Shown in pieces: positions 3,443 through 47,914 of a DNA stretch of 64,000 nucleotides. Position 1 is the stretch's first letter; every line of letters begins with the position of its first letter. The translations under genes and the position numbers were made by a program. Source of the DNA: Erysipelotrichales bacterium (GTDB lineage: Bacteria > Bacillota_I > Bacilli_A > RFN20 > CAG-826); contig JAFLUZ010000009.1 of NCBI GenBank assembly GCA_022508535.1, positions 3,480 to 67,479 on the forward strand. Reading direction: 5' to 3'. The notes beneath the pieces are model-generated. The model did no database searches. It worked only from the letters and a program-made list of their open reading frames with translations, and was not told the origin of the DNA.

Positions 3443-3904
3443 TTATTGTCGTGGTGATGACAATAGTTTTAACACCTTTCTTAAGTTGGTGCCATCAGTA
3501 GATTGTATCGTTACATAGACCATTTTTAATTCTTCATGAAATGTTATTGAAGCATTATTATTTTCATATGAACATTCTACATTTTTTGGAGCATTAAAAT
3601 AAAATTCTACCGATGCATTAGTTGCATTTTGTGGTATAACTTCACATTTTATTCCAATAGTGGTGCTATCACCAGAGAATGGAACTATATAATAATCGTC
3701 ACATCCTTGCTCAAGCTTTGCTTCTGGAGTAAGTTCAATACGTCTAACACCCTCACCTTGTATAGTGTAACTAATATCTTCAACGTAGATTGTAGGATTA
3801 TACACTTGCATTTTCCCACCAAAGAACCCGACGATAACAATAGATACAATATAGACAATACCAATAATTAAAATTACAGATTTCTTCATATTGCTATCCC
3901 CCAC
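3443..3904 (-). CDS. Small membrane-anchored extracytoplasmic protein (153 aa)
   Basis: It has an N-terminal TM helix (SVILIIGIVYIVSIVIVGFFGG) and its start overlaps the upstream permease gene by 1 bp, so it is translationally coupled. Confidence 0.45.
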   Translation of the reverse strand: MGDSNMKKSVILIIGIVYIVSIVIVGFFGGKMQVYNPTIYVEDISYTIQGEGVRRIELTPEAKLEQGCDDYYIVPFSGDSTTIGIKCEVIPQNATNASVEFYFNAPKNVECSYENNNASITFHEELKMVYVTIQSTDGTNLRKVLKLLSSPRQ

Positions 3905-6096
3905 TACTTCTCATAATAATAGGCTTTTATTCTTAGTGCAAATGAACCATATGCAAAAAGTAATAATGCCAAACCAATAATTGCTAATTTAAGTGATGCC
4001 TGGATGAATGATCCTGTTCTATTTAAAGATTCTGTAAATAGAAAATACGATATCAAGGCAATTGCAATCGACATTCCAAAAGCAAGGAGTGTTGAATTTC
4101 TTTCATTTGGATTATCAATAGAATCACCAACTGTAGCATATTGCTCATTTTGTGGATTCATAATATCCATAGTTGCACTAAAGAAGATGTGCGCGTATTG
4201 AATAAATAAAACTGCCACAGAAAGTAAAATTACATTACCTATTTCAATCCCACTAAACCTGCCAAATATTGCCAATGTTATAATAATGCTTGGTATAGAT
4301 AATACTAAGTTAAATAATAACTTTGCAACTAATGGATATATTGGATTAACTGGTTTAGTCTTTTTGATGTAACCAGCACGTCCTTCTTTACTATAAAAAG
4401 TTGCAATCATACTATTACTTGCTAATAAAGGAAGTAAAATTAATAACATATTGAATGCATATGTCATAATATCGCCACTTAATTTCGTGTTCATTGCAGC
4501 AAATATACTATTTAAGAGCAAAATTAGAATTGGAACAATAATATATACGGCCAAATAATTGCCAGAAATTTCTACTGATCTAAAGTTAATTTGAAAATCT
4601 TTATTAACAAATGTAATAAATGGTTTTCGAACTTTATTTTTCTTTTCGCGATCAATAATATTCTTATCAAACTCAAATGATTTAGTCATCATTGAGAAGA
4701 ATAAAGGTTTGGCGGTAATATAGGATATACCAATAAGTGCGCCTACTAATGCAATAACAGCTAGTAAAGAAAGCACTGTATAAAGGTTAATTTGATGTCT
4801 TATTGCCATATTAACTGGATTTCCTACCATTGCATATACAAGATATGCTAGTGGTGATAAATAAGCTTTAAATCCTGTTAAGAAATTATTAATAAAACTT
4901 CTAATGTATGGCCATTGTAATGCTAAATTAATATTTTCTGGTATCAAATTAATAATGAAAACAACTAGTGCAATTCCACATACGATGGCGATTAATATCA
5001 CGATTGTTTCAATTACAGGGAATTTTTTAAAGAATCTACTTATATACATTAATGGTATTGAAATAAGTGAGCCAATTAAAACAGGCAATAATGTAATTAA
5101 GATAAATGGTATCCATAACCAAATAAACACAACCCAAGAAACTTGACTATGTTGGAATCCCGAATAAACAAACGCCAAAATAATCGGTAGTAAGAAATTG
5201 ATATTTTTTTTCATTTCAAAAACGAAAAACACGATTAATTTAGAAAAGAACAATTGATCCGAAGTGACTGGTAATGTAACCAAAACTTTATTGTCATCAG
5301 AAAAATACAAATTTTTCATCAATCCAGCTGCACAAGAAATAATTGATAAAACAAACAATACACCTACAACCACAATCATTACATCAATTATTTCTGAGTG
5401 ATAAAACAAATTTAATAAACCACGAGAATAGTGAATTATTAGATATGCAACAACAGTTACAAGCACAAATTTTAACAAACTTAACGCAACCTTTATGATT
5501 CTTTCTTTAGTATTTTTAGTCCAAGAAAAATCTAGTTTATCTCTTAATTGCATTAACACTAAAGCTGTAAATGGTTTCTTTATTTTTCTACCTTTTACCA
5601 CTTTGACAGTTGTTTTGTTTTTTTCTATTTTCTTTATTTTATCCTGATGAATATTTTTAAAAGAATCAATCAAATACAAAATCGATGTAGCAATATAACT
5701 AACTAACGATATAAGAGTCAAAATCACTAATGCTATCTCTTTACTTTTCCATATTCCAATCGAATTCGCGCGAATAGCAACAAATATCATAAATGGCATA
5801 ATAAGAATTGTTATAGGCGCAAGCAAATTTTGCATCTTTATTGACTCTTTTTTTAGTAAGCGAGATAAGTAATAACCAAATGTCACAATTACTAACACCA
5901 TAGTAGCAATAACAATCAAAGTTTTAAAATCAAATGCTCTTTCGAATAAAAAACGATATGGGTAAGAGATACCTCTTCCTACATAGTAGAAGAAATCTTT
6001 ACCTAATAGTGTCATTCCAAATAAAACTAGTAAGAGAAAAGATAGTATGTTCAATACCATGTAGATTACAGATTTTGTTTTTAAATTGAATCTCAT
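3904..6096 (-). CDS. Polytopic integral membrane protein (730 aa), a candidate permease partner of the upstream ABC ATPase fusion
   Basis: Many hydrophobic helices run throughout the protein. It sits 36 bp downstream of the ABC ATPase gene in the same orientation. Confidence 0.5.
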   Translation of the reverse strand: MRFNLKTKSVIYMVLNILSFLLLVLFGMTLLGKDFFYYVGRGISYPYRFLFERAFDFKTLIVIATMVLVIVTFGYYLSRLLKKESIKMQNLLAPITILIMPFMIFVAIRANSIGIWKSKEIALVILTLISLVSYIATSILYLIDSFKNIHQDKIKKIEKNKTTVKVVKGRKIKKPFTALVLMQLRDKLDFSWTKNTKERIIKVALSLLKFVLVTVVAYLIIHYSRGLLNLFYHSEIIDVMIVVVGVLFVLSIISCAAGLMKNLYFSDDNKVLVTLPVTSDQLFFSKLIVFFVFEMKKNINFLLPIILAFVYSGFQHSQVSWVVFIWLWIPFILITLLPVLIGSLISIPLMYISRFFKKFPVIETIVILIAIVCGIALVVFIINLIPENINLALQWPYIRSFINNFLTGFKAYLSPLAYLVYAMVGNPVNMAIRHQINLYTVLSLLAVIALVGALIGISYITAKPLFFSMMTKSFEFDKNIIDREKKNKVRKPFITFVNKDFQINFRSVEISGNYLAVYIIVPILILLLNSIFAAMNTKLSGDIMTYAFNMLLILLPLLASNSMIATFYSKEGRAGYIKKTKPVNPIYPLVAKLLFNLVLSIPSIIITLAIFGRFSGIEIGNVILLSVAVLFIQYAHIFFSATMDIMNPQNEQYATVGDSIDNPNERNSTLLAFGMSIAIALISYFLFTESLNRTGSFIQASLKLAIIGLALLLFAYGSFALRIKAYYYEK

Positions 6097-6132
6097 AAAA
6101 TATACCTCCTATCTTTCAATAATTACTATAGA

Positions 6133-8346
6133 TTACATTTCCTCTGGGTTTTCACCAATCGTATCAAGATAGAATTGCTCTAATGTCACACCACTATCTT
6201 CGATTTCTTTAACGGTTTTTACACATTGGATTTCGCCTTTTTTAATAATGGCAATACGGTCACACAATTTTTCTACAATATCAATAATATGGGAAGAGAA
6301 GAAAACAATATTGCCTTCTTCGGCATGTTGTTTCATACATTTTTTAACTTGATAGATACTTGTTGGATCTAACCCAGTTAAAGGTTCATCAAGAATCCAT
6401 ACTTTTGGATTATGGACTAATGCAGCCATAATAGTAATTTTTTGTTTCATACCATGCGAATAGGTTTTAATTTTGTTGTCGATAGAGTGCTCTAACTGGA
6501 ATAGTTCAATATATTTTGCAAGTCGTGCATCACGATCGTCTTTGCTGACTTGATAAATATCTGCAATATAGTTTAAATATTCTCTACCACTTAATTTTTC
6601 ATATAAAGCATAATGGTCTGGTACATATCCGATTAAGCGCTTTGCTTGCACAGGCTGCTTTGCAACATCATAACCACATATGTCGATATTTCCTTCACTT
6701 ATTGGTTGAATACCAACAGTACTTTTGATAATTGTGGATTTACCTGCACCATTTGGTCCTAAGAAGCCGAATATTTCTCCACCGACAACTGCAAAGTTTG
6801 CATCATGAACAGAGTAATGCTTATTTGAGGCATACTTCTTAGAAAAATGAATTAACTCATATCTTATTCCTGCATCTTTTATCATAGGTTCTTCAATACT
6901 CCTTCCATTTAATGTTGACTCTAAAGCCAGTTGATCAACTTTTATTTTCTTTAATCTTTCAATTAATTTATTATGTGAATCTGCAATGTTGTAACATAGT
7001 TCATAAATAAACCAAACGGCAACTCCAATTAATACATACACTATATAGAATAAAAATTGATATAGTGGATGGAATTCTAATTCCAATCCAGCAATAGTAA
7101 ACTTAACCGTGCCTAACTCAAATATGTTTTCTGCCCATCGCCCTAATTTTTCAGCAATGAAAGTAGAATTTATAAAGAAATAATCCACTTCATGTCCCAT
7201 GGCAGTAAACACAACATTCATTACTAACGCTAATACGAAGTATCCAAAGAACCAAGCCATTGAATAATAAAATTGTTTAAGTTTTGGTTTTTCAAATACT
7301 CCTAACGCCACACCAAGTATTGGCATAAAGAATGCAATCGCATGGTTAAACCAGAAATGCATTATTGTTGGACTTATTGCATTAGTCCATTCGTTATAAT
7401 TAGGCATCAACATTGCAAACAAAGCGCCCGCAACATTTATGAAATAAGTAAAATAGAATAATCTTTTTGGTTTAAATATAAAGCAAATTGGCATTAAAAA
7501 CATCGCTGTATTACAAAGGTGGAATGGCCAGTTCCATGGTTGGAGTATCACATCATATTTATACGCGTACATAAAACCTGTTAAAGTGCCCAATGAAATA
7601 ATAATTAGTGAATAATCAATTATTTCACGTGGTTTATTTTTTAAAGTCGAATAAAGCACTAAAGGTATTATTACAATAAAAGCATACATAAATAATCGAT
7701 GCTCTACTGTTATATCAATTATTTTAGCCAGCGCATTAGCCTTGCCGAATAAAAACCTTGGCATAAATACCGGCATAGTCGTGATGTTTATTAAGAAAAA
7801 CATCAAGAACATTAAACCTATTTCTTTTAATGAAGACTTATCATGAAAGTCTTTGATAAAGTAATAAATAGACAACGCAAGCGCAAATCCAATTTCAAGA
7901 GGGAACATGTAAGTTAGCATAGAGGTATTTGCATGTCCTTGCATCATTGTTAATATTGGTCGAATGAAAATGATAGATAAAACGAATATCGGCATAGAAA
8001 TGAAACGAGTCATATTCTTTGCAGTCTTAAAATTAAAAAATGGTCTCAACAAAAGAATTAAAATCGCAGAAATTTCAAGCCACATTATAAGATTTGCTGT
8101 AATTCCTAAAAATGGACTCAATGGACCATTTGTGCTATGGGCATAATCCGTAAAAATTTCACCAATTTTACCACCAGATGCTTGAATGTCTTTATAGCAC
8201 ATGAATCTCACAATAAAAATCGCGATTAAAACATATGGAATTATTCTTTCAACGATAAGTTTTTCCTTTGAGGCAAATTTAAAATGCGTCAAAGCTATTA
8301 GTCCACTTATCAATAAAAACGATATTGCAAATAGCAGATAATACAT
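6133..8346 (-). CDS. Fusion protein: a roughly 480-aa polytopic membrane domain followed by a C-terminal ABC transporter ATP-binding domain
   Basis: The C-terminal domain has Walker A GPNGAGKST, signature YSHGMKQK, Walker B ILDEP and an ABC-2-like ending TLEQFYLDT. The N-terminal domain is multi-TM and carries the motif PWNWPFHLCNTAMFLMP. Confidence 0.7.
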   Translation of the reverse strand: MYYLLFAISFLLISGLIALTHFKFASKEKLIVERIIPYVLIAIFIVRFMCYKDIQASGGKIGEIFTDYAHSTNGPLSPFLGITANLIMWLEISAILILLLRPFFNFKTAKNMTRFISMPIFVLSIIFIRPILTMMQGHANTSMLTYMFPLEIGFALALSIYYFIKDFHDKSSLKEIGLMFLMFFLINITTMPVFMPRFLFGKANALAKIIDITVEHRLFMYAFIVIIPLVLYSTLKNKPREIIDYSLIIISLGTLTGFMYAYKYDVILQPWNWPFHLCNTAMFLMPICFIFKPKRLFYFTYFINVAGALFAMLMPNYNEWTNAISPTIMHFWFNHAIAFFMPILGVALGVFEKPKLKQFYYSMAWFFGYFVLALVMNVVFTAMGHEVDYFFINSTFIAEKLGRWAENIFELGTVKFTIAGLELEFHPLYQFLFYIVYVLIGVAVWFIYELCYNIADSHNKLIERLKKIKVDQLALESTLNGRSIEEPMIKDAGIRYELIHFSKKYASNKHYSVHDANFAVVGGEIFGFLGPNGAGKSTIIKSTVGIQPISEGNIDICGYDVAKQPVQAKRLIGYVPDHYALYEKLSGREYLNYIADIYQVSKDDRDARLAKYIELFQLEHSIDNKIKTYSHGMKQKITIMAALVHNPKVWILDEPLTGLDPTSIYQVKKCMKQHAEEGNIVFFSSHIIDIVEKLCDRIAIIKKGEIQCVKTVKEIEDSGVTLEQFYLDTIGENPEEM

Positions 8347-8397
8347 TTTCTACCTCCTACTAAATCTCTAGATTTAGTGTAGCCAAAAATCTAATGT

Positions 8398-8425
8398 ATT
8401 ATAGCATAAAAATATTTTTAGTCAA
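8398..8425 (-). promoter_or_regulatory. Sigma-A-type promoter of the ABC fusion operon: TTGACT-16-TATAAT
   Basis: On the minus strand the -35 TTGACT is at 8420-8425 and the -10 TATAAT at 8398-8403, with a 16-bp spacer. An 8-bp palindrome (ACTAAATC/GATTTAGT) lies at 8359-8378, between the predicted TSS and the RBS. Confidence 0.5.
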
Positions 8426-8492
8426 CATCACGTGAAGTAAGCACCATTTTCCCTATCATTTTAAGCAAAAATAAAAGATGCTTTCGCACCTT

Positions 8493-9266
8493 TTATGAAT
8501 ACATAATTTTGATAATTGCTAATACAAGTTTTCTTGGTAATATTCTTTGCAAAAATATCACTAATTTGTAAGAAAATCCTACTGCAACACGAATTGGAGG
8601 ATTCTTCCTTTTAATTACTTTTAAAATGACCTTGGATACTTTACGAGGTGAAACACCATTTAGTTCATCTTTTTCCATCTTTTTGATGGATTTTGTAGCT
8701 TTTCCTTCTTTATCATCTTTAATGACTGTTTTTCTACTTTCTGTAAAGCCTGTTTTTGTATCACCAGGTAATATCGTTGTCACTTTAATGTGACGTGATT
8801 TAAGCTCAATTGATAAGCATTCACTAAATTTATCAACTGCTGACTTACTCATTGAGTAAAAACCTTGATAAGGGATAGTTAAATCTCCTGCAACAGAGCC
8901 AACATTTATAATTTTTCCACCATCGTTAATAAGTGGAAGAAATTCTTTAGTTATTGCTATAACGCCCATAACATTAGTTTTAAATATTTTCTCAATATCT
9001 TCGTAATTGCTATCTATAATTGAGCCCGCAATTCCCATACCCGCATTATTAATTAAAATATCAATTTTGTGTTCCTTTTCTTCAATGATTTTTCTGACAT
9101 TTTCGATATTATTTAAATCTGTAACATCACATTTAAGAAAATTGAGTCCTGCAATTTGAGTGTCTCTTCTTGCAAGACCATAAACCGTAAACCCTTTACT
9201 AATTAATAATTCGGCAAGATCTTTACCAATTCCACTACTGACACCAGTAATTACAACTACTGGCAT
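8493..9266 (-). CDS. Classical short-chain dehydrogenase/reductase with a hydrophobic C-terminal tail, a candidate 3-ketodihydrosphingosine reductase
   Basis: Motifs TGVSSGIG, NNAGMG and Y-x3-K (YSMSK) are present. The C-terminal 60 aa are basic and hydrophobic (VAVGFSYKLVIFLQRILPRKLVLAIIKIMYS). The start overlaps the stop of the SPT-like gene. Confidence 0.65.
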   Translation of the reverse strand: MPVVVITGVSSGIGKDLAELLISKGFTVYGLARRDTQIAGLNFLKCDVTDLNNIENVRKIIEEKEHKIDILINNAGMGIAGSIIDSNYEDIEKIFKTNVMGVIAITKEFLPLINDGGKIINVGSVAGDLTIPYQGFYSMSKSAVDKFSECLSIELKSRHIKVTTILPGDTKTGFTESRKTVIKDDKEGKATKSIKKMEKDELNGVSPRKVSKVILKVIKRKNPPIRVAVGFSYKLVIFLQRILPRKLVLAIIKIMYS

Positions 9267-10450
9267 TATTTAATGACCTCTAACTCAACAAGAACATCTT
9301 TAATTTGTTTCATTGCATAATCTAATTGTTCTTTTGTATGTGTAGCGGTATAACTTGTTCTTAAAAGTGCAAATCCTTCTGGAGTAGCAGGAGAAACAAC
9401 AGGGTTAACATAAACTCCGCGTTCTAATAATAAGCTACAGGCTTTGAATGCTTTAAAGTCATCATATACGTAAATTGGAATAATTGGAGTATTAGAATCA
9501 ATAATTGGTACTCCCAATTTCTTTAATCCTTCTCTCATATAAGCAGATATTTCAAGCAATCTTTTTGGACGATCTGGTTCAGCTTTGATAATTCTTAAAG
9601 CCTCTAATGCACAGGCCGCACATGATGGAGTAATAGACGCTGAGAAAATATAAGGTCTAGAAGAGTGTTTTACATATTCAACTACTTCTTTTTTCGCAGC
9701 CATATATCCACCTAATGATGCTAGTGATTTTGAGAATGTTCCCATATAAATATCAACTTCATCTTCTAATCCGAAGTATTCTGCTGTTCCGCGTCCATGT
9801 TCACCTAATACGCCTAAACCATGAGCGTCATCAACCATTACTCTAGCTCCATATTTTTTCGCTAAAGCAACAATTTCAGGAAGTTTAGCAATATCTCCTC
9901 CCATTGAGAAAACACCATCTGTTACAATTAAAATTCCTTTATCACTTGGAATAGATTTTAACACTGCTTCTAAATCTTCCATATCTGCGTGTTTGTAGCG
10001 AAGCATCTTAGCATAGCTAAGCCTACATCCATCATATATAGATGCGTGATTTTCACGATCACAAACAATATAATCTCCTAATCCTGCAATTGCAGAAATA
10101 ATTCCTAAGTTTGATTGGAAGCCAGTTGAAAATGTCATAACTGCTTCTTTATGCAAGAATTCTGCTAATTCTTTTTCAAGTTGTAAGTGTAAATCTAAAG
10201 TACCATTTAAAAATCTTGAACCGGAACATCCTGATCCATATTTCTTTAAGGCCTCAATACCAGCATTAATTACACGACTATCAGATGTTAAGCCCAAATA
10301 ATTATTTGAACCAATCATCACTACATTGTGTCCAGACATCTCTACTTCGACATCTTGTCCTGAAGATAAAGCATGAAAATAAGGGTAAACTCCTTCTTTT
10401 TTAGCCATTTCAATTCTTTCCATATGATGGCATTTATCAAATAAATCCAT
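9266..10450 (-). CDS. spt: PLP-dependent alpha-oxoamine synthase, serine palmitoyltransferase-like
   Basis: Motifs NNYLGL, GSGCSGSRFLNGT, GTFSKSLASLGGY, PIIPIYV and VNPVVSPATPEGFALLRTSYTATHT match my recollection of Sphingomonas SPT (GSGTNGSRMLNGT, GTFSKSVGTVGG) better than KBL (GFGMASVRFICGT, GTLGKALGG). Confidence 0.7.
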   Translation of the reverse strand: MDLFDKCHHMERIEMAKKEGVYPYFHALSSGQDVEVEMSGHNVVMIGSNNYLGLTSDSRVINAGIEALKKYGSGCSGSRFLNGTLDLHLQLEKELAEFLHKEAVMTFSTGFQSNLGIISAIAGLGDYIVCDRENHASIYDGCRLSYAKMLRYKHADMEDLEAVLKSIPSDKGILIVTDGVFSMGGDIAKLPEIVALAKKYGARVMVDDAHGLGVLGEHGRGTAEYFGLEDEVDIYMGTFSKSLASLGGYMAAKKEVVEYVKHSSRPYIFSASITPSCAACALEALRIIKAEPDRPKRLLEISAYMREGLKKLGVPIIDSNTPIIPIYVYDDFKAFKACSLLLERGVYVNPVVSPATPEGFALLRTSYTATHTKEQLDYAMKQIKDVLVELEVIK

Positions 10451-10528
10451 AATTCAATCTCCTTTTTCTAGAAAATATATTATATAAATTTTTTATTAAT
10501 GTCTATATTCTATTTTCAATTTTTAAGC

Positions 10529-10562
10529 GCAAAAAAAATGTAACGAGTTATTAATTCGTTAC
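10529..10562 (-). terminator. Rho-independent terminator downstream of the GntR gene
   Basis: Perfect 7-bp stem GTAACGA/TCGTTAC followed by a U-run on the minus strand. Confidence 0.5.
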
Positions 10563-10659
10563 GGGGTAGATTACAATTTCATACCTTAGGTAAATTAACC
10601 TAATAAGTGTCGATTCACTATATTTATTTTATTCATTTTAAAGATAATGTCAAAACAAT

Positions 10660-11283
10660 TTATTCCATTGCACCATATGTTAAATATGTAATAGCTCTTT
10701 GATAAGATAAATCATCTTTACCAACAATAATTAGCTTATCATTAGCGATAAATGTAAAATCAGGCCCTGGAGACGTTATTGTTCTTCCTCCTCTTTTTAT
10801 GGCGACAATTGTTGCTTCCGTGTAGTTATAAAAATATACATCACCAATTGTTTGATTAATAACCCAACAATCATCATGGATAACAATTTCTTTAAATTCT
10901 ATTTCTGAATGAGTAGTAAAACTTCCTTGCTTTAATATAGCGGCTACTCTTTTAGAAATATCATCGTTTAAAAGATTTCGTTGCGCGATTAATTCGTTTA
11001 ATTCAGAAACTTGCTTTTTATGTTCATCAAGATCAGCAAATTTGGCCAAGAACTTTGTAGCATTAGATTTCGATTCAACAAAAATACCAACGCCATGTTT
11101 TACTGATACGATTTTTTCATTTGCTAAAATATTGATTGATTTACGAATAGTCTCAGAAGATACACTATACTCTCCTGATAACAAAGTTCTCCCTTTGAGA
11201 GTTTTTCCTTCTTTATAAATCCCTTTGCTTATTTTAAGTGCGATATCTTTTGCGATTAATAAATAATTTGGATCAACTTTCAT
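10660..11283 (-). CDS. GntR-family HTH transcriptional regulator with a C-terminal TrkA_C (RCK_C)-like domain
   Basis: N-terminal wHTH (LSGEYSVSSETIRKSINILANEKIVSVKHGVGIFV). The C-terminus GDVYFYNYTEATIVAIKRGGRTITSPGPDFTFIANDKLIIVG resembles TrkA_C. Confidence 0.65.
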   Translation of the reverse strand: MKVDPNYLLIAKDIALKISKGIYKEGKTLKGRTLLSGEYSVSSETIRKSINILANEKIVSVKHGVGIFVESKSNATKFLAKFADLDEHKKQVSELNELIAQRNLLNDDISKRVAAILKQGSFTTHSEIEFKEIVIHDDCWVINQTIGDVYFYNYTEATIVAIKRGGRTITSPGPDFTFIANDKLIIVGKDDLSYQRAITYLTYGAME

Positions 11284-11433
11284 AAAAACACCTCACTTTT
11301 ATTTCATTATATCAAAATAAATTTGTATTTATCATTCTTTTTATGCTCTTCTTCTAATTAAGTAGATTTTTCTATTATTGAAATTGCGTATTATATCTTA
11401 TATAATAAATCATTGAAAAGGGTGATGTCTCTT

Positions 11434-12429
11434 ATGAAACCATTTAGATACGTTTTAAAATCGTTATTTAACAATTCGGTTATTATTGAAGGTAGAAAAA
11501 GAAAGTGGATTGAATCATTTATTATATTTGTTCTTGCAATGATTATTGCTTTAATTCCTACTGTTGTAACAATTGCGTCAGTTAAAGGATCCGCATTACT
11601 TGATGCAAATTCAAATGGGGTAGATGAAGGTTTAAAATACTTCTCTGAAACCATGAATAAAAAACAAATAAAGTTTAAAATCAAAGAAGAAAACAAAGAA
11701 AAAGTTATTACCATTGAAGAAAGCGACTTCAAATGGGGAGAAAATGATAACGACACCGATGGCTATTATTTCAATAACCGCGGTGAAGATAATTACTTCA
11801 TTTATGAGCGTTACGATGGGGATAAGCGTGTCGAAAGACTAAGAGTTTATCAATTGATTAACTTGGATGCTAATGCATTTAGTGACAAAATTGAAAGCAT
11901 TAGAAACCAAAGTATTGAAACTACTCCAACTTCTTCTTTCATGGCAATTGGAAAAACAAGTAGTTATTTATGTGTTTATAGTAAAGCTTCTGAAAGTTGG
12001 GCAAGTCCAATTGCTGCTAGATTCTTAACATATGATCGTTTTGAAGATGGACAAGAAGTAATTTCTTCTTATGTTGGTGAGCATTCATTAAATAACTGGA
12101 AAGAATTTATTGATACTTCTTATACTAGTACAAAAATTACTTCCTTATTTACTCAAGTTGGAATTTACGCCGCACTCAATTTCGGAATTTCTCTATTTAT
12201 GGCTATTATGGTATTCATCATAACAAGAGGAAAGAATAATCCATATAGAGATTATAAGTTCATCGAAGCAATCAAAATTGTAAGTGTCGCTTCTTTAACA
12301 CCAAGTATAATTGCTGCTCTCATTGGATTTATTTTACCAGCATATTCTACTATGCTATTTATGGTAATTCTCGGTGTTCGTATAATGTGGTTAACTTCAA
12401 AAAATCTTAACCCTGCTATTAGAAATTAA
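11434..12429 (+). CDS. Membrane protein of unknown function
   Basis: The ORF-track frame starts at a TTG. I prefer the ATG at 11434, which is preceded by an AAAGGGTGA RBS. There are TM segments near both ends. Confidence 0.45.
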   Translation: MKPFRYVLKSLFNNSVIIEGRKRKWIESFIIFVLAMIIALIPTVVTIASVKGSALLDANSNGVDEGLKYFSETMNKKQIKFKIKEENKEKVITIEESDFKWGENDNDTDGYYFNNRGEDNYFIYERYDGDKRVERLRVYQLINLDANAFSDKIESIRNQSIETTPTSSFMAIGKTSSYLCVYSKASESWASPIAARFLTYDRFEDGQEVISSYVGEHSLNNWKEFIDTSYTSTKITSLFTQVGIYAALNFGISLFMAIMVFIITRGKNNPYRDYKFIEAIKIVSVASLTPSIIAALIGFILPAYSTMLFMVILGVRIMWLTSKNLNPAIRN

Positions 12430-12443: not shown

Positions 12444-13733
12444 TCATTGTGGTGCCTTTTCTTTATTACTTATTTCTTTATAAACATGTTTTTTATTTTC
12501 ATATGCTTTAATTAGTTTTATATTTTTCCATTGGCTGTACTTATAAACACCTACAAAGTCATACACAACTAAATTGTCATGTCCGTATTTTAAATAAAAA
12601 CTTTCATTAATGTGCGCAATATTTTCACTTTTGCTTAATATCACGACAACATCTGCCTTTTTAACTAAACCTTTTTCATCTATTGCATATTTCAATTTCT
12701 TATTTGCGCCAATTAGTTTTTTTAGATTTTCCTCATTTGAATTATCATAAACAATAATTTGCTTATCAAATCGCTTTAATAATGTCTTAATGACCTCGAG
12801 AGATAGCTTACTTATTTCGTCAAACAAATCGCTTATGCCTAAGATTCCGATAATTTCAACATTTTTTGGAATCTTATCCACTATTTGTTCTGCAAGATTA
12901 ATATTTCCTTCTTCTAAAGTTTTATTAATACCAAAATTATTTTTTAAAAAGAATTTAATATTATTACTTTCACGCAATATTTCATTACTATTACCTAGAA
13001 CAAAATTTTCGTTAATTTTAGGATATTCTAAGGTTGATAAAAGACTATTAATATTTAAATTATAGTCATTGTATAAATTGTGCATGTTCGTAAGAAATTT
13101 ATGACACATTACATTCAAAACACTTTGTGATACTCTATACATTTCTGCCTCTTCGTAGGACATAAAATACATTTTTCTGCCATCTAATAAAAATTTTTCA
13201 TAAAGCAATCGCACATTTGAATGTGTTTGTTGTGAAATCGTTCCAACAACAATTTGCTCTGGTGTAAATATATTTTCATAAACAAAATTATCAAAATTAA
13301 CATATGGCATATAAGCAATTAAAAAATTATCTTTATTACTATTTAAATATTTATCAATTGCTCTGCTTGTACCTATTGGTAATGGTGTTTTAATTAATAA
13401 TGTCGTTTTCCAAGTGACCTCGTTTTTTATTCTATCAATAAGACGATAAAAAGAATCTAAACTATACTCTTCTTTTTTATTATCTAATTCTACACTAATT
13501 AGAATTATTTCAACTCCCGATAAATCTAGCATATTGCTAGTAAAAATTATTTGATTCTTATTATTAACAACTATTTCTTTTATACGTTCATCTTTAAATA
13601 ATTTTATGCCTTTGTTTAATAAAGAAACACGAAAGGCATTGCTATCATATGCTACTACTTCATTACCAAAACTAGCAAAAAGTGCAACATTAGCAACGCC
13701 TATATCACCTAAACCAATAACCCCAATTTTCAT
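12444..13733 (-). CDS. UDP-glucose/GDP-mannose dehydrogenase family protein, divergent and apparently lacking the catalytic GGxCxPKD motif
   Basis: N-terminal Rossmann MKIGVIGLGDIGVANVALFASFGNEVVAYD. Overall collinearity with UDPGDH, but I could not find the catalytic Cys motif. Confidence 0.45.
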   Translation of the reverse strand: MKIGVIGLGDIGVANVALFASFGNEVVAYDSNAFRVSLLNKGIKLFKDERIKEIVVNNKNQIIFTSNMLDLSGVEIILISVELDNKKEEYSLDSFYRLIDRIKNEVTWKTTLLIKTPLPIGTSRAIDKYLNSNKDNFLIAYMPYVNFDNFVYENIFTPEQIVVGTISQQTHSNVRLLYEKFLLDGRKMYFMSYEEAEMYRVSQSVLNVMCHKFLTNMHNLYNDYNLNINSLLSTLEYPKINENFVLGNSNEILRESNNIKFFLKNNFGINKTLEEGNINLAEQIVDKIPKNVEIIGILGISDLFDEISKLSLEVIKTLLKRFDKQIIVYDNSNEENLKKLIGANKKLKYAIDEKGLVKKADVVVILSKSENIAHINESFYLKYGHDNLVVYDFVGVYKYSQWKNIKLIKAYENKKHVYKEISNKEKAPQ

Positions 13734-13752
13734 TTTGCCCTCATTTAACTAA

Positions 13753-14097
13753 TTAATCGCCGTAATCAGAACCGCGAGATTTGTCTTCTACAAATATATT
13801 TAAAGGATCTGTAATATCAAATATTTCCAATATGATAAAATCATCTATTCCAATGGTAAGAGGATGTTCAAAGTTACCTGTAAATATTACTTTATGATTT
13901 ACTTTAACTACGCGCTCCATTTCTTTTAAGATTCTCTCTACTTCATTTGGATGATGATCCTTAAATGAACTAAACATTGTATAAAAAATCGGTTCAATAT
14001 AAAAAACATCACCATCACTTGTTGTGTACTTACTTGAAAATGGATTTTGTTTCTCAATTTCAAATTTATATTTGTTCCATTCTTCATAATTTTTCAT
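13753..14097 (-). CDS. Small hypothetical protein
   Basis: ORF downstream of the UDPGDH-like gene. The start MKNYEEW is preceded by an AAGGTGA RBS. Confidence 0.35.
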   Translation of the reverse strand: MKNYEEWNKYKFEIEKQNPFSSKYTTSDGDVFYIEPIFYTMFSSFKDHHPNEVERILKEMERVVKVNHKVIFTGNFEHPLTIGIDDFIILEIFDITDPLNIFVEDKSRGSDYGD

Positions 14098-14323
14098 TTT
14101 AATCACCTTGTTAATTTTAAAACAAATCTCGACATAAAACAATTAATTACAATATTAGTTTTTAACACTGTCGAAATATGTCAAATTATCATATTATTAA
14201 AATTTAATTAATAAAATTTTAAAACAACATCAAAAAGTGTATAATAAATCGAAAGAGACAATGATAAGCTACAAATTGTCAGAAAGGAATTTATCAATTA
14301 GTTATTGATAGCAAGTGTATTAA

Positions 14324-17029
14324 ATGAAAAGGAAATTACTTTTAATATATGCATACATTCTATCTTTCTTATGTCCTGCTTTGATATTTTTGTTTGCTCT
14401 AAAGACTAATGGCATTTATCCTTTTGGCGATTCTACCCTTTTATTTGTAGATTCACAAGGTCAATATATATCTTTTTTAAATTATTATCGCTCAATCTTA
14501 TTAGGGGCAAATAATATTAAATATACTTTTGCTAAACCGCTCGGTGGCGATATGGTTTCCATGTTTACTTATTATTTACTCTCACCTTTTAATTTATTAT
14601 ACGTTTTCTTTGATATGAGTTCTTTGCCACTTGGTATCGCAATAGTTACTATTTTAAAAATAGGGACAATTGGAATATCAATGTATATTCTTTTAAGACA
14701 TTTAAACAAAGATAAAATTTTCTCTAGCTTAATCTTCTCTACTGCATACGCTCTATGTTCTTATGTAATTGTATATAATTTCAATTTTATGTTCTTGGAT
14801 GGAGTAATTTTTGCTCCTCTTATCATTTTAGGAATAAGTAAAATTTTTGAGGGAAAACGAAATATTTTCTATGTTATATCTTTAGCTTTAGCAATCCTTA
14901 TTAATTACTATATTGGTTTTATGCTATGTTTCTTTGCTGGTGTATTCTTTTTGTATAAATATTATGAAGTTGAACGAAATAAGGATGAAACAAAAAAGTT
15001 ATTTCAAACTTTTATTATTGGATCAATACTCGCTGGCGCTATAAGTTCATTCAGCTGGGTATCTGCAGTACTGAATATGAGTGGCGCAAAAGCTTCACTA
15101 GAAAATAGCAGTGCTTTTTCCATGCAAACCTTGTGGAAAATCGCTGATTTTAGTAAAAACTTAACTAGTAAATCTTATTTAGGAATGGACGATATTATTA
15201 ATGGTGCGCCATTAATGTTTATAGGTGTAGTAAGTTTAATTTTATGTGCTCTTTACTTTATGAACAATAAATTTAGCATTCGTGAAAGAATTTGTTCTGC
15301 TACAGTAATTGTATTATTTGTTTTTATCATGTTATTTACTTTCCCAAATAATCTTTTACATGGTGGTTCCGCTCCTACTTGGTTTACTTTTAGATATGCT
15401 TTTGTTTTTGATTTCTTTTTAATATATTTAGCTTTTAAAGAATTTAATAATCTTGAAGGATTAAAAATTCATCATTATGTAATACCTTTATTTATCTTAG
15501 CCTTAATTAGTGTCATACTAAAACTTAATGGCATTGAAACAAACGTTCTTCAAGACATTTTGATAGCAGTCGTTACTCTCGTTTTGATTATGGCATTAAA
15601 ATACTTTAAACATAAATTAGTTACTGGTGCTGTTTCAGTATTATTAGTATTAATTAATAGCTTGAATTTAAACGTTAATACCAATCACGTAATCTCCACA
15701 AATAAAGAAGCATCAGAAAACGGAAGCGGCAGCTACATAAGTTATGAAAAATACAACAAAGAAACTAGCGAAATTGGTAAAGTAATAGATTTTGTAAAAG
15801 ACTACGATGAGAGTGATGAATTTTATCGTATGGAAAAAACTTTCTATTCGCAAGCAACATATAATCTCGCTAATAACGATTCATTTATGTTTGATTATGC
15901 AGGTTTAACCCATTATTCTTCTAGTGATAAATTATCAACCAGAAACTATTTAGCTTATTATATGGGATTCCACACTAATTACAACTGGGCTTCTTATGGT
16001 CTTGGTTCTACATTAACTGCAAACTCATTAATGGGAATTAAATATATTATTGATCGTGATTATGAATATAATAGTATTCTCATTCCAAATCGCCATTTCG
16101 GTGCAAGAAATTATTTAACTCCAATTAAAGATTTTGATTCTTATTTAGGAGATCAAATACATGTCTTTGAAAATCCTTATGCACTGTCATTAGCGTATCT
16201 TTCTAAATTACCAAATAACGAGCAAAGTGAAGAAAAACACAATGTATTCCGTTATCAAAATCAAATGTTAAAGAATTTAACAGGTTTAGATTTAGGCGAT
16301 GTATTTAAACCATTAGAATTTACATTTACATATCAAAATATTGAGCCACTAGAACAAGAAAATCATTATGTATTAATTGATTTAACAAAACCAGGATATA
16401 TAAATTATGCAGTCAAATTAGATAACGAATTAAAGAAATATCCGATGTATTACTATATTAAAGATGGTTTCTCTCAATATATGTCATTAACCGATACTAG
16501 AAATTTATATTATTTCCATATGTATAATTATGCGGTTAATCCAATTGAGTATTCCCCTTATCAATCCACAAAAAATTATCAACTTAAATTAAATGAAAAC
16601 TTGTATTGGGACAATGTGGAAATAATTCCTAGTTTCTATTATGAAGATGTAGATTTATTAAAACTATATATTGCTGAATTACAAAAAAATAATGTTAGCT
16701 TAAAAAGACTTTCTTCTTCTCATTTAAAAGGAACTGTTACTTATAATGAAGATAACCCTCTTCTTATGACAAGTATTCCATTTGAGGGAAAATGGAAATT
16801 AAAAGTCAATAATAAACCAGTAAAAACATTTATCACACAAAACTTATTTGTATCTGCTGATTTAAGTAAATTAAGTATTCATAACGGAGATTCAATCACT
16901 ATCGATTTAGAATATGTTACAAACGAATATACTTTAACGATTATTCTTGGACTTATTGCCATTGGCTATATCTTCTTTATAGATTATAATTATGGCAAAA
17001 AAATTATCAGCAAATTAAAAACTAAATAG
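14324..17029 (+). CDS. yfhO: YfhO-family polytopic membrane protein (putative glycosyltransferase for cell-envelope polymer glycosylation)
   Basis: N-terminal motif FGDSTLLFVDSQGQYISFLNYYR, a multi-TM N-terminal half and a large extracytoplasmic C-terminal domain ending in a TM helix. Confidence 0.7.
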   Translation: MKRKLLLIYAYILSFLCPALIFLFALKTNGIYPFGDSTLLFVDSQGQYISFLNYYRSILLGANNIKYTFAKPLGGDMVSMFTYYLLSPFNLLYVFFDMSSLPLGIAIVTILKIGTIGISMYILLRHLNKDKIFSSLIFSTAYALCSYVIVYNFNFMFLDGVIFAPLIILGISKIFEGKRNIFYVISLALAILINYYIGFMLCFFAGVFFLYKYYEVERNKDETKKLFQTFIIGSILAGAISSFSWVSAVLNMSGAKASLENSSAFSMQTLWKIADFSKNLTSKSYLGMDDIINGAPLMFIGVVSLILCALYFMNNKFSIRERICSATVIVLFVFIMLFTFPNNLLHGGSAPTWFTFRYAFVFDFFLIYLAFKEFNNLEGLKIHHYVIPLFILALISVILKLNGIETNVLQDILIAVVTLVLIMALKYFKHKLVTGAVSVLLVLINSLNLNVNTNHVISTNKEASENGSGSYISYEKYNKETSEIGKVIDFVKDYDESDEFYRMEKTFYSQATYNLANNDSFMFDYAGLTHYSSSDKLSTRNYLAYYMGFHTNYNWASYGLGSTLTANSLMGIKYIIDRDYEYNSILIPNRHFGARNYLTPIKDFDSYLGDQIHVFENPYALSLAYLSKLPNNEQSEEKHNVFRYQNQMLKNLTGLDLGDVFKPLEFTFTYQNIEPLEQENHYVLIDLTKPGYINYAVKLDNELKKYPMYYYIKDGFSQYMSLTDTRNLYYFHMYNYAVNPIEYSPYQSTKNYQLKLNENLYWDNVEIIPSFYYEDVDLLKLYIAELQKNNVSLKRLSSSHLKGTVTYNEDNPLLMTSIPFEGKWKLKVNNKPVKTFITQNLFVSADLSKLSIHNGDSITIDLEYVTNEYTLTIILGLIAIGYIFFIDYNYGKKIISKLKTK

Positions 17030-17043
17030 CGATTATTCACTAT

Positions 17044-20000
17044 TTAGTTTTTTTCTATAAGTTGTTCCTTTTGTTTTCTTTTTTTATCGATAAATACTTC
17101 AAGTCCTATTGTTATTCCAAATAGTGCAAATCCCATTAAAGAAAGCATTAAGCCTTCTTTTAGACGTGGTGTGAAATATTCCATAACATAAGAGTTGCTC
17201 CCGCTTTTTCCAACGAATGCACAGAAACCACCTTGAGCTTTAAAAATCTTTGGTTCAGTTACTATTCCATTTTCATCAGTCATTTTAAGACTCCAGCCAG
17301 CATCATATGGGATGGTAGTAACCACTATTTTATTTTCTTTGAAATTAGTCTCAAATGTTGCTTTATTAGTAGTCATATGAACGTTTTCTAATGGGTTTTC
17401 TTTTATTTTTTCAAGACGTTTTAAGTAACTATTATAATTTTCTTCATAAACAGCAAATCCATTCATGTTCGTGTTATCGCCTTCATTAATCATAGGTTTA
17501 ACAATGATTGTTTTTGCTGGGCGATCAACATAGAATCCTCTTAAATTTTTATAATCTTGATTAATATATTGATGGTAATCAAATGTTATCATCTTTCCTT
17601 CTTCATCATATATATGCACGTAGGACAATCTATTCATTTGTAGTTTTAAACCAAGAAAACATCCCTCGTCTGATGCTTTACAGAAATTTGTTTTATCCGC
17701 AAGTTCAATAATATATTTGGTCGTATTTACCGTATATGGAGTAGAACTTCCTGTAACTCTTGTACATCCTTCTGTATTTAACAATGCATCACTAGAATCG
17801 CCAACTCCACTTGGGCAAGCATATCTTGTAACTGATAATTGAGGATTAATATATAACTTACCTGAGGCCTTACCATAATTATTAATAGGAAACTCTTTTA
17901 GAAGCTTTAATGTTTCTTCATCATATTCATTTTCTTCTGAAAAACCATCCTCATTCACATCATAAAGAATTGCCCCCGACATTAATGCTTCTTCATTTTT
18001 AATTACCTGCATGAAATCATTAACTAAATAACCACTTGATGACGCACCATCATTACGCGATCTCTGTTGCCAATAAACATAAGAATAATTACTACCATAA
18101 TGAATATAGTTCTCTACTGAGTCAATATTAATAGGAATTATATTATCAAAAGCATAACCTAACTCAATAAAGTTTTTATTTTCAAAAACAGAATGTAACG
18201 ATGAAGATAAATCTTCCCGATATTCAAAACCAAAAGGCACATTATACATTGATTTATCATTAATAACTTCATTTTTAATTACTGTACTAAAGTCGGAATT
18301 TTTTACAATATAATATTTAACTCCTAAAAATGCATCAAGATTTACAAGTTTTTCATGTGCTCCCATGGTCCATGTATCACGTGAATATAAGATTCGCGTC
18401 CAATTTAAGAAATCTTTGAGATTAGAATTGTATAAAGAATGGAAACCTCCAACACCATTATAGTTTTCTCTCATCCCTAGATTGTTCGTAGAATCATTTG
18501 CAGTAGTATTAAACACTCTAAAATATGTATCATCCACGTTATTAATTTTCTTAACTACTTCTACTTCATCCGCAAAATTATCTGGTCCACCCGCTAAATA
18601 TTGATATTTTGTCTTTTGTCCAAATAAAGTGAAATTACCTACAATCAATACTTCAATAGATAACATAATCGGGAGTATTTGTTCAAATCTCGGTTTCTTA
18701 AATGTACCACGTACTATAAAATAACAAACAATTACATAAATAAATTGATAGATGATAATAGCAAGAGTTTCTTTAATATCATGGACTCCATATTGATTAT
18801 CTAATGCCGTTAAGACTGTAAAGGTCATACAAGTAATAATAAACAAGACCGATATATCAAAATACCATTTAGGATACTCTTTTAAATCTTTATAACTTAA
18901 TGCTACATAAGCAATTAATGCAACAACAACAAATAATTGCCATCTTCCATAATCTACAGTAAAGCCATGAAATAATTGATAGGCAAATGGAGTAAATAGC
19001 ATTATCCCCATTCCAATAATAGCGATAATGTGCGAAATTTTCTTTTTTCTTACACTTTCAATTACAGCAGGTACAACCATTAAACTTAAAGGTGTATAGA
19101 TAAATAGACTTGAAAGAGTATTATCGTATCCCGTATTGCGATATAAAAGTGTATTAAAATCACTAACCACAGGGAAAAAGTATGTTGCTAGTGGATAGTA
19201 TCTTTTCTTTGTTGAATTAAAATCAAACAGTAATTTCCAAAGTTCTTCTAGATTCTTTTCAGTAAAAGCGGTTTTTAAAGATTCAAGATATGTCGCACTT
19301 TCTACTCTTCCTGCTTCTTGTACAGCATTTAAACATGGAAGTAAGATTAATGCACACATCATTAAACCCACTGCAAAACCAAATACTCCTAAACCAATAA
19401 CAATAAAATTATCTTTGATGTTACGTTCTTTAATAGTTTGAAAGTATCTAAATGCCGCATACATAACACCTGCAAAACAACTAACAACTAAAAAGAAATA
19501 GTTTGCCAATCCCAAAACAAATAATGAAAGCATTAATGTAACCGGTCTTTTTTCTTTGATAGTTTTTTCAATACCAAGTAGCACCAACGGGAACATTACA
19601 ACTACTTCCATAAAATGATTAAACCACATATAGTATAAGTTCCAACCACAGAAAGCATATGCAATAGCAAAAACACGTGCTGTTTTTTCATCTGCGCCTA
19701 AATATTTGATATATGCTCTAAAAGTCAAACCAGCCAAAGCCATCTTTACGATCATCAAAAGAGCTAAGCCTTGCGGAATTAAAGTTCTTGGACAAAGAAG
19801 AATTGGTAAAAAGAACGGATTTAAAAAGTAGTAAAAACTATTCGCTCCAATATTATTTACACCAAGAACAGTATTTGAATCCCAAAGTGGGAATTCACCA
19901 GTTTTAATAAAATGCCACCAGTCATCATAACCGTTTGTATAAAATGGGATTTGTTGTTGGACATAATCTCCACCTAGTGGAATAGTGCCATTTTCCATTA

Positions 20001-20130
20001 CTAATACAATTATAGACATCAAAAAAGCTAAGCCTACTAAAAATAAAAAGTAGTAAAAAAGACTTTTTTCATTCTTCAAAAATGAAAATTTATTTTTTAT
20101 TGAGTTCCAAAAATTTTGCATGAGACTCAC
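17044..20130 (-). CDS. YfhO-family polytopic membrane protein (second, convergent paralogue)
   Basis: Motif GGDYVQQQIPFYTNGYDDWWHF and the same domain layout. Its stop is 14 bp from the stop of the first YfhO. Confidence 0.7.
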   Translation of the reverse strand: MSLMQNFWNSIKNKFSFLKNEKSLFYYFLFLVGLAFLMSIIVLVMENGTIPLGGDYVQQQIPFYTNGYDDWWHFIKTGEFPLWDSNTVLGVNNIGANSFYYFLNPFFLPILLCPRTLIPQGLALLMIVKMALAGLTFRAYIKYLGADEKTARVFAIAYAFCGWNLYYMWFNHFMEVVVMFPLVLLGIEKTIKEKRPVTLMLSLFVLGLANYFFLVVSCFAGVMYAAFRYFQTIKERNIKDNFIVIGLGVFGFAVGLMMCALILLPCLNAVQEAGRVESATYLESLKTAFTEKNLEELWKLLFDFNSTKKRYYPLATYFFPVVSDFNTLLYRNTGYDNTLSSLFIYTPLSLMVVPAVIESVRKKKISHIIAIIGMGIMLFTPFAYQLFHGFTVDYGRWQLFVVVALIAYVALSYKDLKEYPKWYFDISVLFIITCMTFTVLTALDNQYGVHDIKETLAIIIYQFIYVIVCYFIVRGTFKKPRFEQILPIMLSIEVLIVGNFTLFGQKTKYQYLAGGPDNFADEVEVVKKINNVDDTYFRVFNTTANDSTNNLGMRENYNGVGGFHSLYNSNLKDFLNWTRILYSRDTWTMGAHEKLVNLDAFLGVKYYIVKNSDFSTVIKNEVINDKSMYNVPFGFEYREDLSSSLHSVFENKNFIELGYAFDNIIPINIDSVENYIHYGSNYSYVYWQQRSRNDGASSSGYLVNDFMQVIKNEEALMSGAILYDVNEDGFSEENEYDEETLKLLKEFPINNYGKASGKLYINPQLSVTRYACPSGVGDSSDALLNTEGCTRVTGSSTPYTVNTTKYIIELADKTNFCKASDEGCFLGLKLQMNRLSYVHIYDEEGKMITFDYHQYINQDYKNLRGFYVDRPAKTIIVKPMINEGDNTNMNGFAVYEENYNSYLKRLEKIKENPLENVHMTTNKATFETNFKENKIVVTTIPYDAGWSLKMTDENGIVTEPKIFKAQGGFCAFVGKSGSNSYVMEYFTPRLKEGLMLSLMGFALFGITIGLEVFIDKKRKQKEQLIEKN

Positions 20131-47674: not shown

Positions 47675-47914
47675 CTACTTTGAGTATTCTATAATTGTTT
47701 TTTCGTCATAGACTGTATAATTATCGATAGTATAGATATCGTATATATCATCATCCGGGTTAGCTAATTCTTGTTCTATTTTTTCCTTTTCTTGAGTTAA
47801 AGCAATATTATGGTTATGCTTATTTAAAAGCACAATACCCATTGTCAAAATCAATCCAAAGGAAACCACAGTTATTAAAATGGAAATTAAATTACGCATT
47901 TTTTTTGATTCCAT
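47675..47914 (-). CDS. DivIC/FtsB-like septum-formation initiator (small bitopic coiled-coil protein)
   Basis: A single TM helix followed by LTQEKEKIEQELAN, in the position of divIC in the Bacillus cluster. Confidence 0.4.
   Translation of the reverse strand: MESKKMRNLISILITVVSFGLILTMGIVLLNKHNHNIALTQEKEKIEQELANPDDDIYDIYTIDNYTVYDEKTIIEYSK

Follow-up and report, generated by a model that had tools for sequence, protein, structure and literature searches.

Can a Gram-positive, spore-forming bacterium make sphingoid bases? Gut bacterial sphingolipids modulate host immunity and lipid metabolism, and to our knowledge they are attributed almost wholly to Bacteroidota; gut Firmicutes are not known as a source of them. 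The question is raised by two overlapping genes in a 64,000-nucleotide stretch of contig JAFLUZ010000009.1 (hereafter the window), from a metagenome-assembled genome (MAG) of Erysipelotrichales. The first gene encodes an alpha-oxoamine synthase (AOS) that resembles serine palmitoyltransferase (SPT), and the second a short-chain dehydrogenase/reductase (SDR) that resembles the 3-ketosphinganine reductase KdsR. The original prediction, made from the letters of the DNA, had proposed a candidate sphingoid-base pathway. According to our analysis, the gene pair is probably an operon for sphingoid long-chain base synthesis (we give this reading a probability of about 0.7), and a sphinganine-type long-chain base would be its most likely product. 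The features that define the pair are the following (PLP, pyridoxal 5'-phosphate):

9266-10450, minus strand: AOS gene, SPT-like alpha-oxoamine synthase, 394 amino acids, ATG start, PLP lysine K241.
8493-9266, minus strand: SDR gene, classical and KdsR-like, 257 amino acids, ATG start; cofactor motif TGVSSGIG, NNAG, Ser124/Tyr137/Lys141 and a C-terminal pair of basic-hydrophobic helices at residues 231-256.
9264-9268, minus strand: TAATG stop/start overlap, a translational coupling junction as read from the sequence.
9277-9280, minus strand: GAGG, Shine-Dalgarno of the SDR gene, within the 3' end of the AOS gene and 10 nt before the SDR ATG.
10459-10464, minus strand: AAGGAG, Shine-Dalgarno of the AOS gene, 8 nt before its start codon and invariant in the two closest relatives (L001 and L002, see below).
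10477-10505, minus strand: candidate sigma-70 promoter of the AOS-SDR operon, TAGACA ... TATAAT/TAATAT, from a consensus scan and of putative function.
8471-8496, minus strand: intrinsic-terminator-like hairpin and T-run closing the operon, with an 11-pair stem, a loop of 4 and a T-tail.

The open reading frames, their coordinates and the overlapping stop and start codons that had been claimed were all borne out on the minus strand, and the quoted AOS motifs GSGCSGSRFLNGT, GTFSKSLASLGGY, PIIPIYV and VNPVVSPATPEGFALLRTSYTATHT were all found in the AOS translation. The overlap is of a single base: the AOS stop TAA (9268-9266) and the SDR start ATG (9266-9264) share one A and read TAATG. Both products gave strong Pfam matches (Aminotran_1_2, PF00155, E=2.4e-58 for the AOS; adh_short, PF00106, E=3.6e-42 for the SDR), so that these are real genes and no chance open reading frames.

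Regarding the AOS, its best NCBIfam family was NF047600, the CFB-type SPT, with 540.9 bits, 122 bits above the next family. The BioF/Kbl-related subfamily gave 418.9 bits, KBL 417.6, betaproteobacterial SPT 412.1 and BioF 385.9, followed by alphaproteobacterial SPT (345.4), ALAS (277) and the CqsA type (208.8). The scores for the two KBL models, NF005394 and TIGR01822 (417.6 and 343.4 bits), and for the BioF model TIGR00858 are all under the corresponding cut-offs of 460, 493 and 426.45 bits, respectively. Among PDB structures, the top match was the SPT of Sphingobacterium multivorum (SmSPT, 3A2B) with 421.9 bits, while alphaproteobacterial SPTs scored around 300, the Thermus AOS 298, KBL at most 291, two cysteate acyltransferases 244.5 and 229, and CqsA 116 bits.

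The alignment of the AOS with SmSPT covers 388 positions with 49% identity and zero gaps. The roles of SmSPT residues in contacting PLP and L-serine have been described from crystal structures (PMC10196870), and the AOS is identical to SmSPT at N52, Y54, G80, S81, F83, F114, H138, S185, D210, A212, H213, T241, S243, K244, F272, S273, A274 and R367. The only contact residues that differ are A79, replaced by Ser (Ser76 in the AOS), and M271, replaced by Ile. The Schiff-base lysine of the AOS, K241, aligns with SmSPT K244 inside GTFSKS. This motif, together with GSGxxGSRxLNGT and F(S/T)AS, is common to the AOS and three solved SPTs, and E. coli Kbl, E. coli BioF and the Thermus AOS diverge at GSGxxGSRxLNGT, GTFSKS and FSAS. 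In the same motif table, neither the KBL-type motifs (GFGMASVRFICGT, GTLGKA and FSNS) nor the BioF motifs were found in the AOS, whose identity to the E. coli proteins is 38% for Kbl and 30% for BioF.

We also built a neighbour-joining tree with 200 bootstraps from the window AOS, 17 Firmicute homologues, the three SPTs, the Thermus AOS, and the Kbl and BioF of E. coli MG1655. The Firmicute AOS clade grouped with SmSPT in 180 of 200 replicates and, with the alphaproteobacterial SPTs added, in 186 of 200; a grouping with Kbl was obtained in 0 of 200. Within this sparse reference set, the phylogeny excludes a placement with KBL or BioF. The view that this is an SPT-type AOS rather than a KBL or BioF enzyme is thus upheld, with profiles, PDB comparison, active-site mapping, motifs and tree in agreement.

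These results bear on two readings in which the pair has nothing to do with lipids. In the first, it would be an amino-acid catabolic pair of KBL (glycine C-acetyltransferase) and a dehydrogenase, like E. coli kbl-tdh. The adjacency of kbl and tdh in E. coli, the 417.6 bits still given by the KBL profile and the label '8-amino-7-oxononanoate synthase' that one source gives to a relative would be compatible with it. However, that score lies 123 bits under the SPT profile as well as below its own cut-off, the KBL motifs are absent and the tree never joins the AOS to Kbl. The partner does not fit either, being a 257-amino-acid classical SDR with KdsR as its best family and a structural model that resembles steroid- and lipid-handling SDRs; of the 223 NCBIfam families that it matched, the 25 best include no threonine dehydrogenase, and no threonine dehydrogenase gene (tdh) was found in the 64-kb window. 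We consider a KBL pair highly improbable. In the second reading, the AOS would be BioF, the 8-amino-7-oxononanoate synthase of biotin synthesis, which belongs to the same superfamily and whose name a JGI source gives to a relative. The BioF score under its cut-off, the 30% identity, the missing BioF motifs and the lack of bioA, bioB or bioD nearby leave this reading with a close to negligible probability.

The SDR would fit the second step of the same pathway. Its best NCBIfam family is NF049977, the KdsR of Bacteroidota, with 228.5 bits against 185.8 for the next family, and the alignment to the profile runs from end to end (residues 3-256 to positions 5-267 of 267). When we extended the comparison to the SDRs linked to AOS genes in other genomes, all 28 of them matched KdsR, with a best E-value of 7e-80 versus 1.3e-61 for the next family. 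In alignments of 28 and 72 family members, TGVSSGIG, NNAG, S124, Y137 and K141 show little or no variation; further features kept by the family are the TGxSSGIG form, an Arg that follows strand beta-2 and a C-terminus of the consensus ...KKKNPPxRVxVGFxYKLLxFLxKILPxR...Y.

This C-terminus had been described as a basic and hydrophobic membrane tail of 60 residues. Its composition is as described, with 14 Lys/Arg versus 3 Asp/Glu in the last 60 residues and a hydrophobic stretch at the end, but the membrane anchor did not stand, the segment being instead a conserved helix pair in a 17beta-HSD-like fold. The most hydrophobic 19-mer has a Kyte-Doolittle mean of 1.52, where around 1.6 is the rule-of-thumb threshold for a membrane span, and it holds two Arg, two Lys and one Pro. 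In an AlphaFold2 model computed with database homologues (pLDDT 90.5), the C-terminus forms a strand and two short helices in a helix-turn-helix arrangement, with pLDDT values of 77-93 in this part. The best full-length Foldseek matches of the model were human 17beta-HSD1 (TM 0.86-0.89) and the SDR 3M1A (TM 0.83), both soluble or peripheral SDRs of lipophilic substrates with no transmembrane helix. Considering hydropathy, the charged 19-mer, the model and these structural matches, we ruled out a tail-anchored or transmembrane reductase of the eukaryotic FVT1/Tsc10 type. The helix pair is probably the lid or entrance for a lipophilic substrate, as is typical for SDRs of this subgroup, and it may lie at the membrane surface without spanning the membrane.

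The two genes appear to be transcribed on their own. The promoter-like TAGACA...TATAAT and the AAGGAG are the sole block of the spacer between the AOS gene and the upstream GntR-type gene that is conserved among the window, L001 and L002. The terminator scan of the region gave 5 terminator-like sites versus 0.8 expected from shuffles, and the gene downstream of the SDR has a near-consensus promoter of its own (TTGACT-16-TATAAT with an extended TG, 8425-8398). With a terminator after the SDR gene, a separate promoter for the downstream gene and a conserved promoter block before the AOS gene, the AOS and SDR genes make up a self-contained bicistronic operon; the GntR/TrkA_C gene on one side and the transporter genes on the other are separate transcription units. 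L001 and L002 have the AOS/SDR overlap in identical geometry, and in L020, L091, L092 and L093 the two genes likewise overlap or abut.

To place the pair in a wider context, we scanned species-representative genomes, which yielded 438 stretches encoding a relative, and kept the best 80 loci (L001-L080), with 72-95% AOS identity. Their labels include Clostridia, Christensenella/Christensenellaceae, Candidatus Caccovivens, Eubacteriales, Acholeplasmatales, Bacilli and Erysipelotrichales, and their sources are the guts of rabbits, ruminants, chickens, mice and humans as well as anaerobic digesters. The spt-kdsR-like pair is no oddity of a single Firmicute, being one member of a tight family that numerous uncultured genomes of Clostridia, Bacilli and Acholeplasmatales share.

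After clustering 841 neighbouring open reading frames and proteins of these loci, the KdsR-like SDR was the only recurrent neighbour of the AOS apart from housekeeping families (UDG, S20-like, IleRS, MscS and SufB-like). It is adjacent to the AOS in 26 of the 80 loci, and in 22 of the 63 that have at least 1.2 kb of flank on both sides. The SDR gene lies upstream of an AOS gene of the same strand in 19 loci, where 11-60 nt separate the two and 17 of the spacings are no longer than 28 nt; in four loci it is found downstream, its start overlapping or abutting the AOS gene, and in three it is on the opposite strand. Among five distant SDR homologues on long contigs (47-56% identical), three are directly downstream of an AOS of 69-75% identity, again with overlapping or abutting starts. 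That adjacency is kept in both gene orders and across classes is an argument for a pathway shared by AOS and SDR. Between Bacilli and Clostridia MAGs, AOS identity is 72-79% versus 35-50% for the linked SDR, and the AOS tree does not track the taxonomic labels. From this it would seem that the AOS has moved laterally between gut Firmicutes, and the gene pair has probably spread in part by this route.

The same neighbourhoods speak to a further reading, in which the pair would be a secondary-metabolite or signalling cassette whose aminoketone or amino alcohol serves in signalling or as an antimicrobial, in the manner of CqsA/LqsA or pyrrole precursors, and not as a membrane lipid. AOS enzymes do serve such roles, CqsA is among the PDB matches, the Thermus AOS is promiscuous and there are no ceramide genes linked downstream. 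However, the CqsA-type scores are far lower than those for SPT, the AOS sits amid housekeeping genes in most loci, and no polyketide synthase, non-ribosomal peptide synthetase or other biosynthetic genes were found among the recurrent neighbour families of the 80 loci. Besides, with 72-95% identity across classes, the AOS seems to serve a core function under strong constraint. We find a signalling cassette very unlikely.

Some loci carry additional genes beside the pair. DegV, of a fatty-acid-binding family, precedes the AOS-SDR pair in four loci and the AOS directly in a fifth; the order DegV-SDR-AOS is seen in L006, L015, L026 and L034 (at about 6100-11200), all from Clostridia MAGs, and in L006 and L026 a large membrane protein that carries a HAD hydrolase domain at its C-terminus comes next. 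Seven Clostridia loci (L021, L038, L041, L042, L043, L062 and L065) have, just upstream of the AOS-linked SDR, another SDR paralogue, divergent in sequence but sharing the C-terminal tail. DegV, the second SDR and the HAD protein may be further steps of the pathway (fatty-acid supply, a second reduction and a phosphatase, respectively). As a candidate for a third conserved pathway gene, a ceramide synthase or kinase was sought in the clustering of the 841 neighbours, which gave housekeeping families plus, in few loci, DegV and the membrane protein with HAD domain; this candidate was rejected.

The setting of the pair is an ordinary low-GC Firmicute chromosome segment with pth, mfd, spoVT, yabQ, spoIIE, tilS, ftsH, lysS, ssb, gdpP, rplI and dnaB. 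The GC content of the locus, 0.32, is equal to that of its flanks. Three sporulation genes lie in the canonical mfd-spoVT...spoIIE-tilS-ftsH neighbourhood:

45479-47608, minus strand: spoIIE.
47892-48293, minus strand: yabQ.
48888-49418, minus strand: spoVT.

These homologues support a spore-forming lifestyle for the host, and together with the Erysipelotrichales source they are consistent with the label of spore-forming Firmicute given by the original prediction. From the housekeeping and sporulation context, the MAG source and the GC content matching the flanks, we conclude that the gene pair is on the chromosome of a spore-former and is no contaminating Bacteroidota DNA.

Gene structure, family placement, active-site conservation and linkage are directly supported by the sequence, and to these we add inferred substrates, cofactor, acyl donor and product fate. 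In the first step, by homology, the AOS would act as a PLP-dependent SPT that joins L-serine and a long-chain acyl thioester into 3-ketodihydrosphingosine with release of CO2, the acyl donor in a Firmicute host being probably acyl-ACP. In the second, by homology and gene linkage, the coupled SDR would reduce the 3-keto group to yield sphinganine (dihydrosphingosine), presumably with NADPH, as hinted by the conserved Arg33 after strand beta-2. The one-base overlap could fix the proportion of AOS to SDR, which would limit the build-up of the keto intermediate. The operon itself holds no gene for later steps such as N-acylation to ceramide or head-group addition.

Several observations weigh against a sphingoid-base operon. 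The AOS score of 540.9 bits is below the curated equivalog cut-off of NF047600 (640), and the 228.5 bits of the SDR are below that of KdsR (400), which is why NCBI names neither protein. The AOS has Ser at the position of SmSPT A79, the equivalent of human SPTLC1 C133, and its substrate specificity (amino acid and acyl chain) cannot be read from the sequence. The phylogeny is a neighbour-joining tree only, with few references and with SulA/CapB sequences left out. Around two thirds of the AOS loci are without an adjacent SDR, every one of the 80 loci is an uncultured MAG, and neither these loci nor the window showed a linked ceramide synthase, kinase or head-group gene. Finally, one genome can hold several unrelated SDRs capable of reducing 3-keto long-chain bases, an activity for which sequence is a poor guide (PMC11211663), so the KdsR assignment of the SDR rests mainly on gene linkage. 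In sum, the resemblance to SPT and KdsR and their linkage hold, and the function is one that we infer, given the scores below cut-off, a ceramide synthase that was looked for among the neighbours and not found, and the sequence-level basis of the argument.

In the main rival reading, the same chemistry is used on another substrate, be it glycine, alanine, threonine, cysteate or a shorter or modified acyl chain, and the SDR would again reduce the ketone, to give in place of sphinganine a non-canonical amino-alcohol lipid such as a 1-deoxysphingoid base or a capnine-like lipid. SPTs take Ala and Gly at low efficiency (PMC10196870; PMC10191378), related AOS enzymes of Bacteroidota use cysteate (PMC9304779), Ser76 falls at a position that contacts the substrate side chain through water, and the AOS score is under the SPT equivalog cut-off. 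However, the contacts of the serine hydroxyl network (N52, G80, S243 and the PLP-phosphate ligands) are all conserved, and genuine SPTs have A, T or N at the A79 position. Regarding cysteate, Lys281 has been proposed as the SulA marker that separates sulfonolipid from sphingolipid enzymes (PMC9304779), and the AOS has Ala271 at this position, as in Spt; besides, the cysteate acyltransferases are 180-190 bits under SmSPT in the PDB scores and no cysteate synthase is adjacent. We regard another substrate as unlikely, although it deserves to be kept in mind, and we maintain sphingoid-base synthesis from serine as the preferred reading.

On both sides of the operon lie genes and elements that we assign to other units:

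10660-11283, minus strand: GntR helix-turn-helix and TrkA_C regulator, 207 amino acids, upstream of the AOS gene.
11413-12429, plus strand: membrane protein of 338 amino acids, no family match, TTG start, divergent from the GntR/TrkA_C gene.
10530-10605, minus strand: insert in the GntR-AOS spacer, with hairpins TTAGGT..ACCTAA and GTAACGA..TCGTTAC plus T8.
3443-8346, minus strand: three-gene module downstream of the operon, with its own promoter.
6133-8346, minus strand: YwaF/TMEM164-family membrane domain fused to an ABC ATPase, 737 amino acids.
3904-6096, minus strand: polytopic permease of 730 amino acids, with a sub-threshold ABC-2 match only.
3443-3904, minus strand: open reading frame of 153 amino acids, third gene of the YwaF/TMEM164-ABC module.

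The regulator immediately upstream of the AOS is indeed a GntR/TrkA_C protein by Pfam, but it forms a separate transcription unit, and among the 80 loci this gene and that of the 338-amino-acid membrane protein adjoin the AOS only in the closest relatives, L001 and L002; as a dedicated regulator of the operon it is at most a tentative candidate. The spacer between regulator and AOS measures 209 nt, and its hairpin insert is specific to the window; since it is missing from L001 and L002, the hairpins are probably the terminator of the GntR gene. A riboswitch or attenuator in this spacer was rejected: Rfam returned no match at gathering thresholds and no relevant one at E<=1, and the fold z-score was -0.77.

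More than 100 database clusters show the architecture of the YwaF/TMEM164-ABC fusion. TMEM164 of humans acts as a lipid transacylase, and by analogy a role of the module in lipid remodelling or export is conceivable. As a conserved pathway partner (acyltransferase or exporter) we rejected the fusion and the permease, which have their own promoter after the SDR terminator, are AOS-linked only in the near-identical L001 and occur elsewhere in distant genomes. On distant contigs the same three genes are found, twice beside DegV-FakA, PAP2 and TetR genes, and not beside AOS or SDR genes.

Other parts of the window hold features of separate interest. A 478-amino-acid protein with a CAP12/Pycsar-type TIR effector domain and TPR repeats is encoded among housekeeping genes (38043-39479, minus strand) and is a candidate anti-phage defence gene. 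A cell-envelope glycosylation cluster occupies 12444-20130, with a diverged nucleotide-sugar dehydrogenase-like gene at 12444-13733 and two convergent genes for large YfhO-family membrane proteins (14324-17029, plus strand; 17044-20130, minus strand). At 61638-62165, on the plus strand, there is a 175-amino-acid CrtO-like membrane acyltransferase (glycosyl-4,4'-diaponeurosporenoate acyltransferase family), and no carotenoid genes were seen in the window.

In the literature on sphingolipid synthesis in Firmicutes and other Gram-positive bacteria, we found no report of a Firmicute SPT. Acholeplasma axanthum was reportedly shown in the 1970s to contain sphingolipids, on which our literature search gave nothing useful; the AOS clade, with members in Acholeplasmatales MAGs, would fit such a finding and might be the genetic basis of those lipids. 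Metagenomic studies quantify Bacteroides spt only (e.g. bioRxiv 10.1101/2021.12.01.470820), and in a study with many labelled sphingolipids E. coli and B. thetaiotaomicron were the only species for which serine palmitoyltransferase was detected (bioRxiv 10.1101/2025.09.11.675017). A wider proposition, for which we see even odds, is that sphingoid bases are made by a large and almost wholly uncultured set of Firmicutes from guts and digesters through a laterally shared, Bacteroidota-type SPT, often in an operon with its own KdsR; with the same odds, this set would comprise Christensenellales/Caccovivens-type Clostridia, Erysipelotrichales, Acholeplasmatales and other Bacilli. If true, Gram-positive bacteria would add to the pool of bacterial sphingolipids that act on the host, surveys counting Bacteroides spt alone would underestimate this pool, and an SPT-KdsR operon conserved across numerous species of Firmicutes would make them the second major phylum with potential producers. 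If another substrate is used, the pair would define a new amino-alcohol lipid class of Gram-positive bacteria. The tight SPT-reductase linkage is also independent genomic support for a sphinganine (reduce-first) route in bacteria, which has been hard to establish in Bacteroidota because the reductase genes are scattered and promiscuous (PMC11211663). The cassette is compact, with two genes, and easy to test by heterologous expression.

Compared with known systems, E. coli kbl-tdh has the same order of an AOS gene followed by a dehydrogenase gene, but Kbl is only 38% identical to the AOS, has other motifs and joins it in 0 of 200 bootstraps. E. coli Tdh, moreover, is a zinc medium-chain dehydrogenase and no SDR, and Caulobacter CerR is likewise no classical SDR, being an NDUFA9/epimerase-like reductase. 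The Caulobacter Spt-bCerS-CerR pathway also has an Spt-type AOS at its start and a keto reduction among its steps (PMC11087976, PMC10191378), but there acylation comes first and CerR reduction follows, the alphaproteobacterial SPT profile gives just 345 bits for the AOS and no bCerS-like gene is linked here. In gut bacteria, SulA/CapB cysteate acyltransferase and 3-ketocapnine reductase follow the same logic of AOS and then SDR (PMC9304779, PMC11211663), and the 3-ketocapnine reductases, which are related to KdsR, are reported to be unclustered (PMC11211663). The AOS differs from SulA/CapB in having Ala for the marker Lys281, and in the PDB comparison the cysteate acyltransferases give 229-244 bits versus 422 for SPT.

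The closest likeness is with the Bacteroidota. In Bacteroides, SPT and KdsR have the locus tags BT_0870 and BT_0972, from which we take the reductase to be unlinked to spt. CFB-type SPTs such as SmSPT (PDB 3A2B/8GUH; NF047600) share with the AOS the length, an ungapped alignment with 49% identity, the SPT signature motifs, the PLP lysine, His138, Asp210, His213, Arg367 and the serine-binding network, and form its sister group in the tree. The AOS departs from them in its score (541 bits versus a cut-off of 640), in A79 to Ser and M271 to Ile, in its Gram-positive, spore-forming host and in being operonic with a reductase. As for the B. thetaiotaomicron 3-ketosphinganine reductase BT_0972/KdsR (NF049977; PMC9278070), it represents the best family of the SDR, aligned including the C-terminal tail, and both are classical SDRs with the Ser-Tyr-Lys triad and the Gly-rich cofactor motif. 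The SDR differs from BT_0972 in reaching 228.5 bits for a cut-off of 400 and in being, here, translationally coupled to an SPT-like gene.

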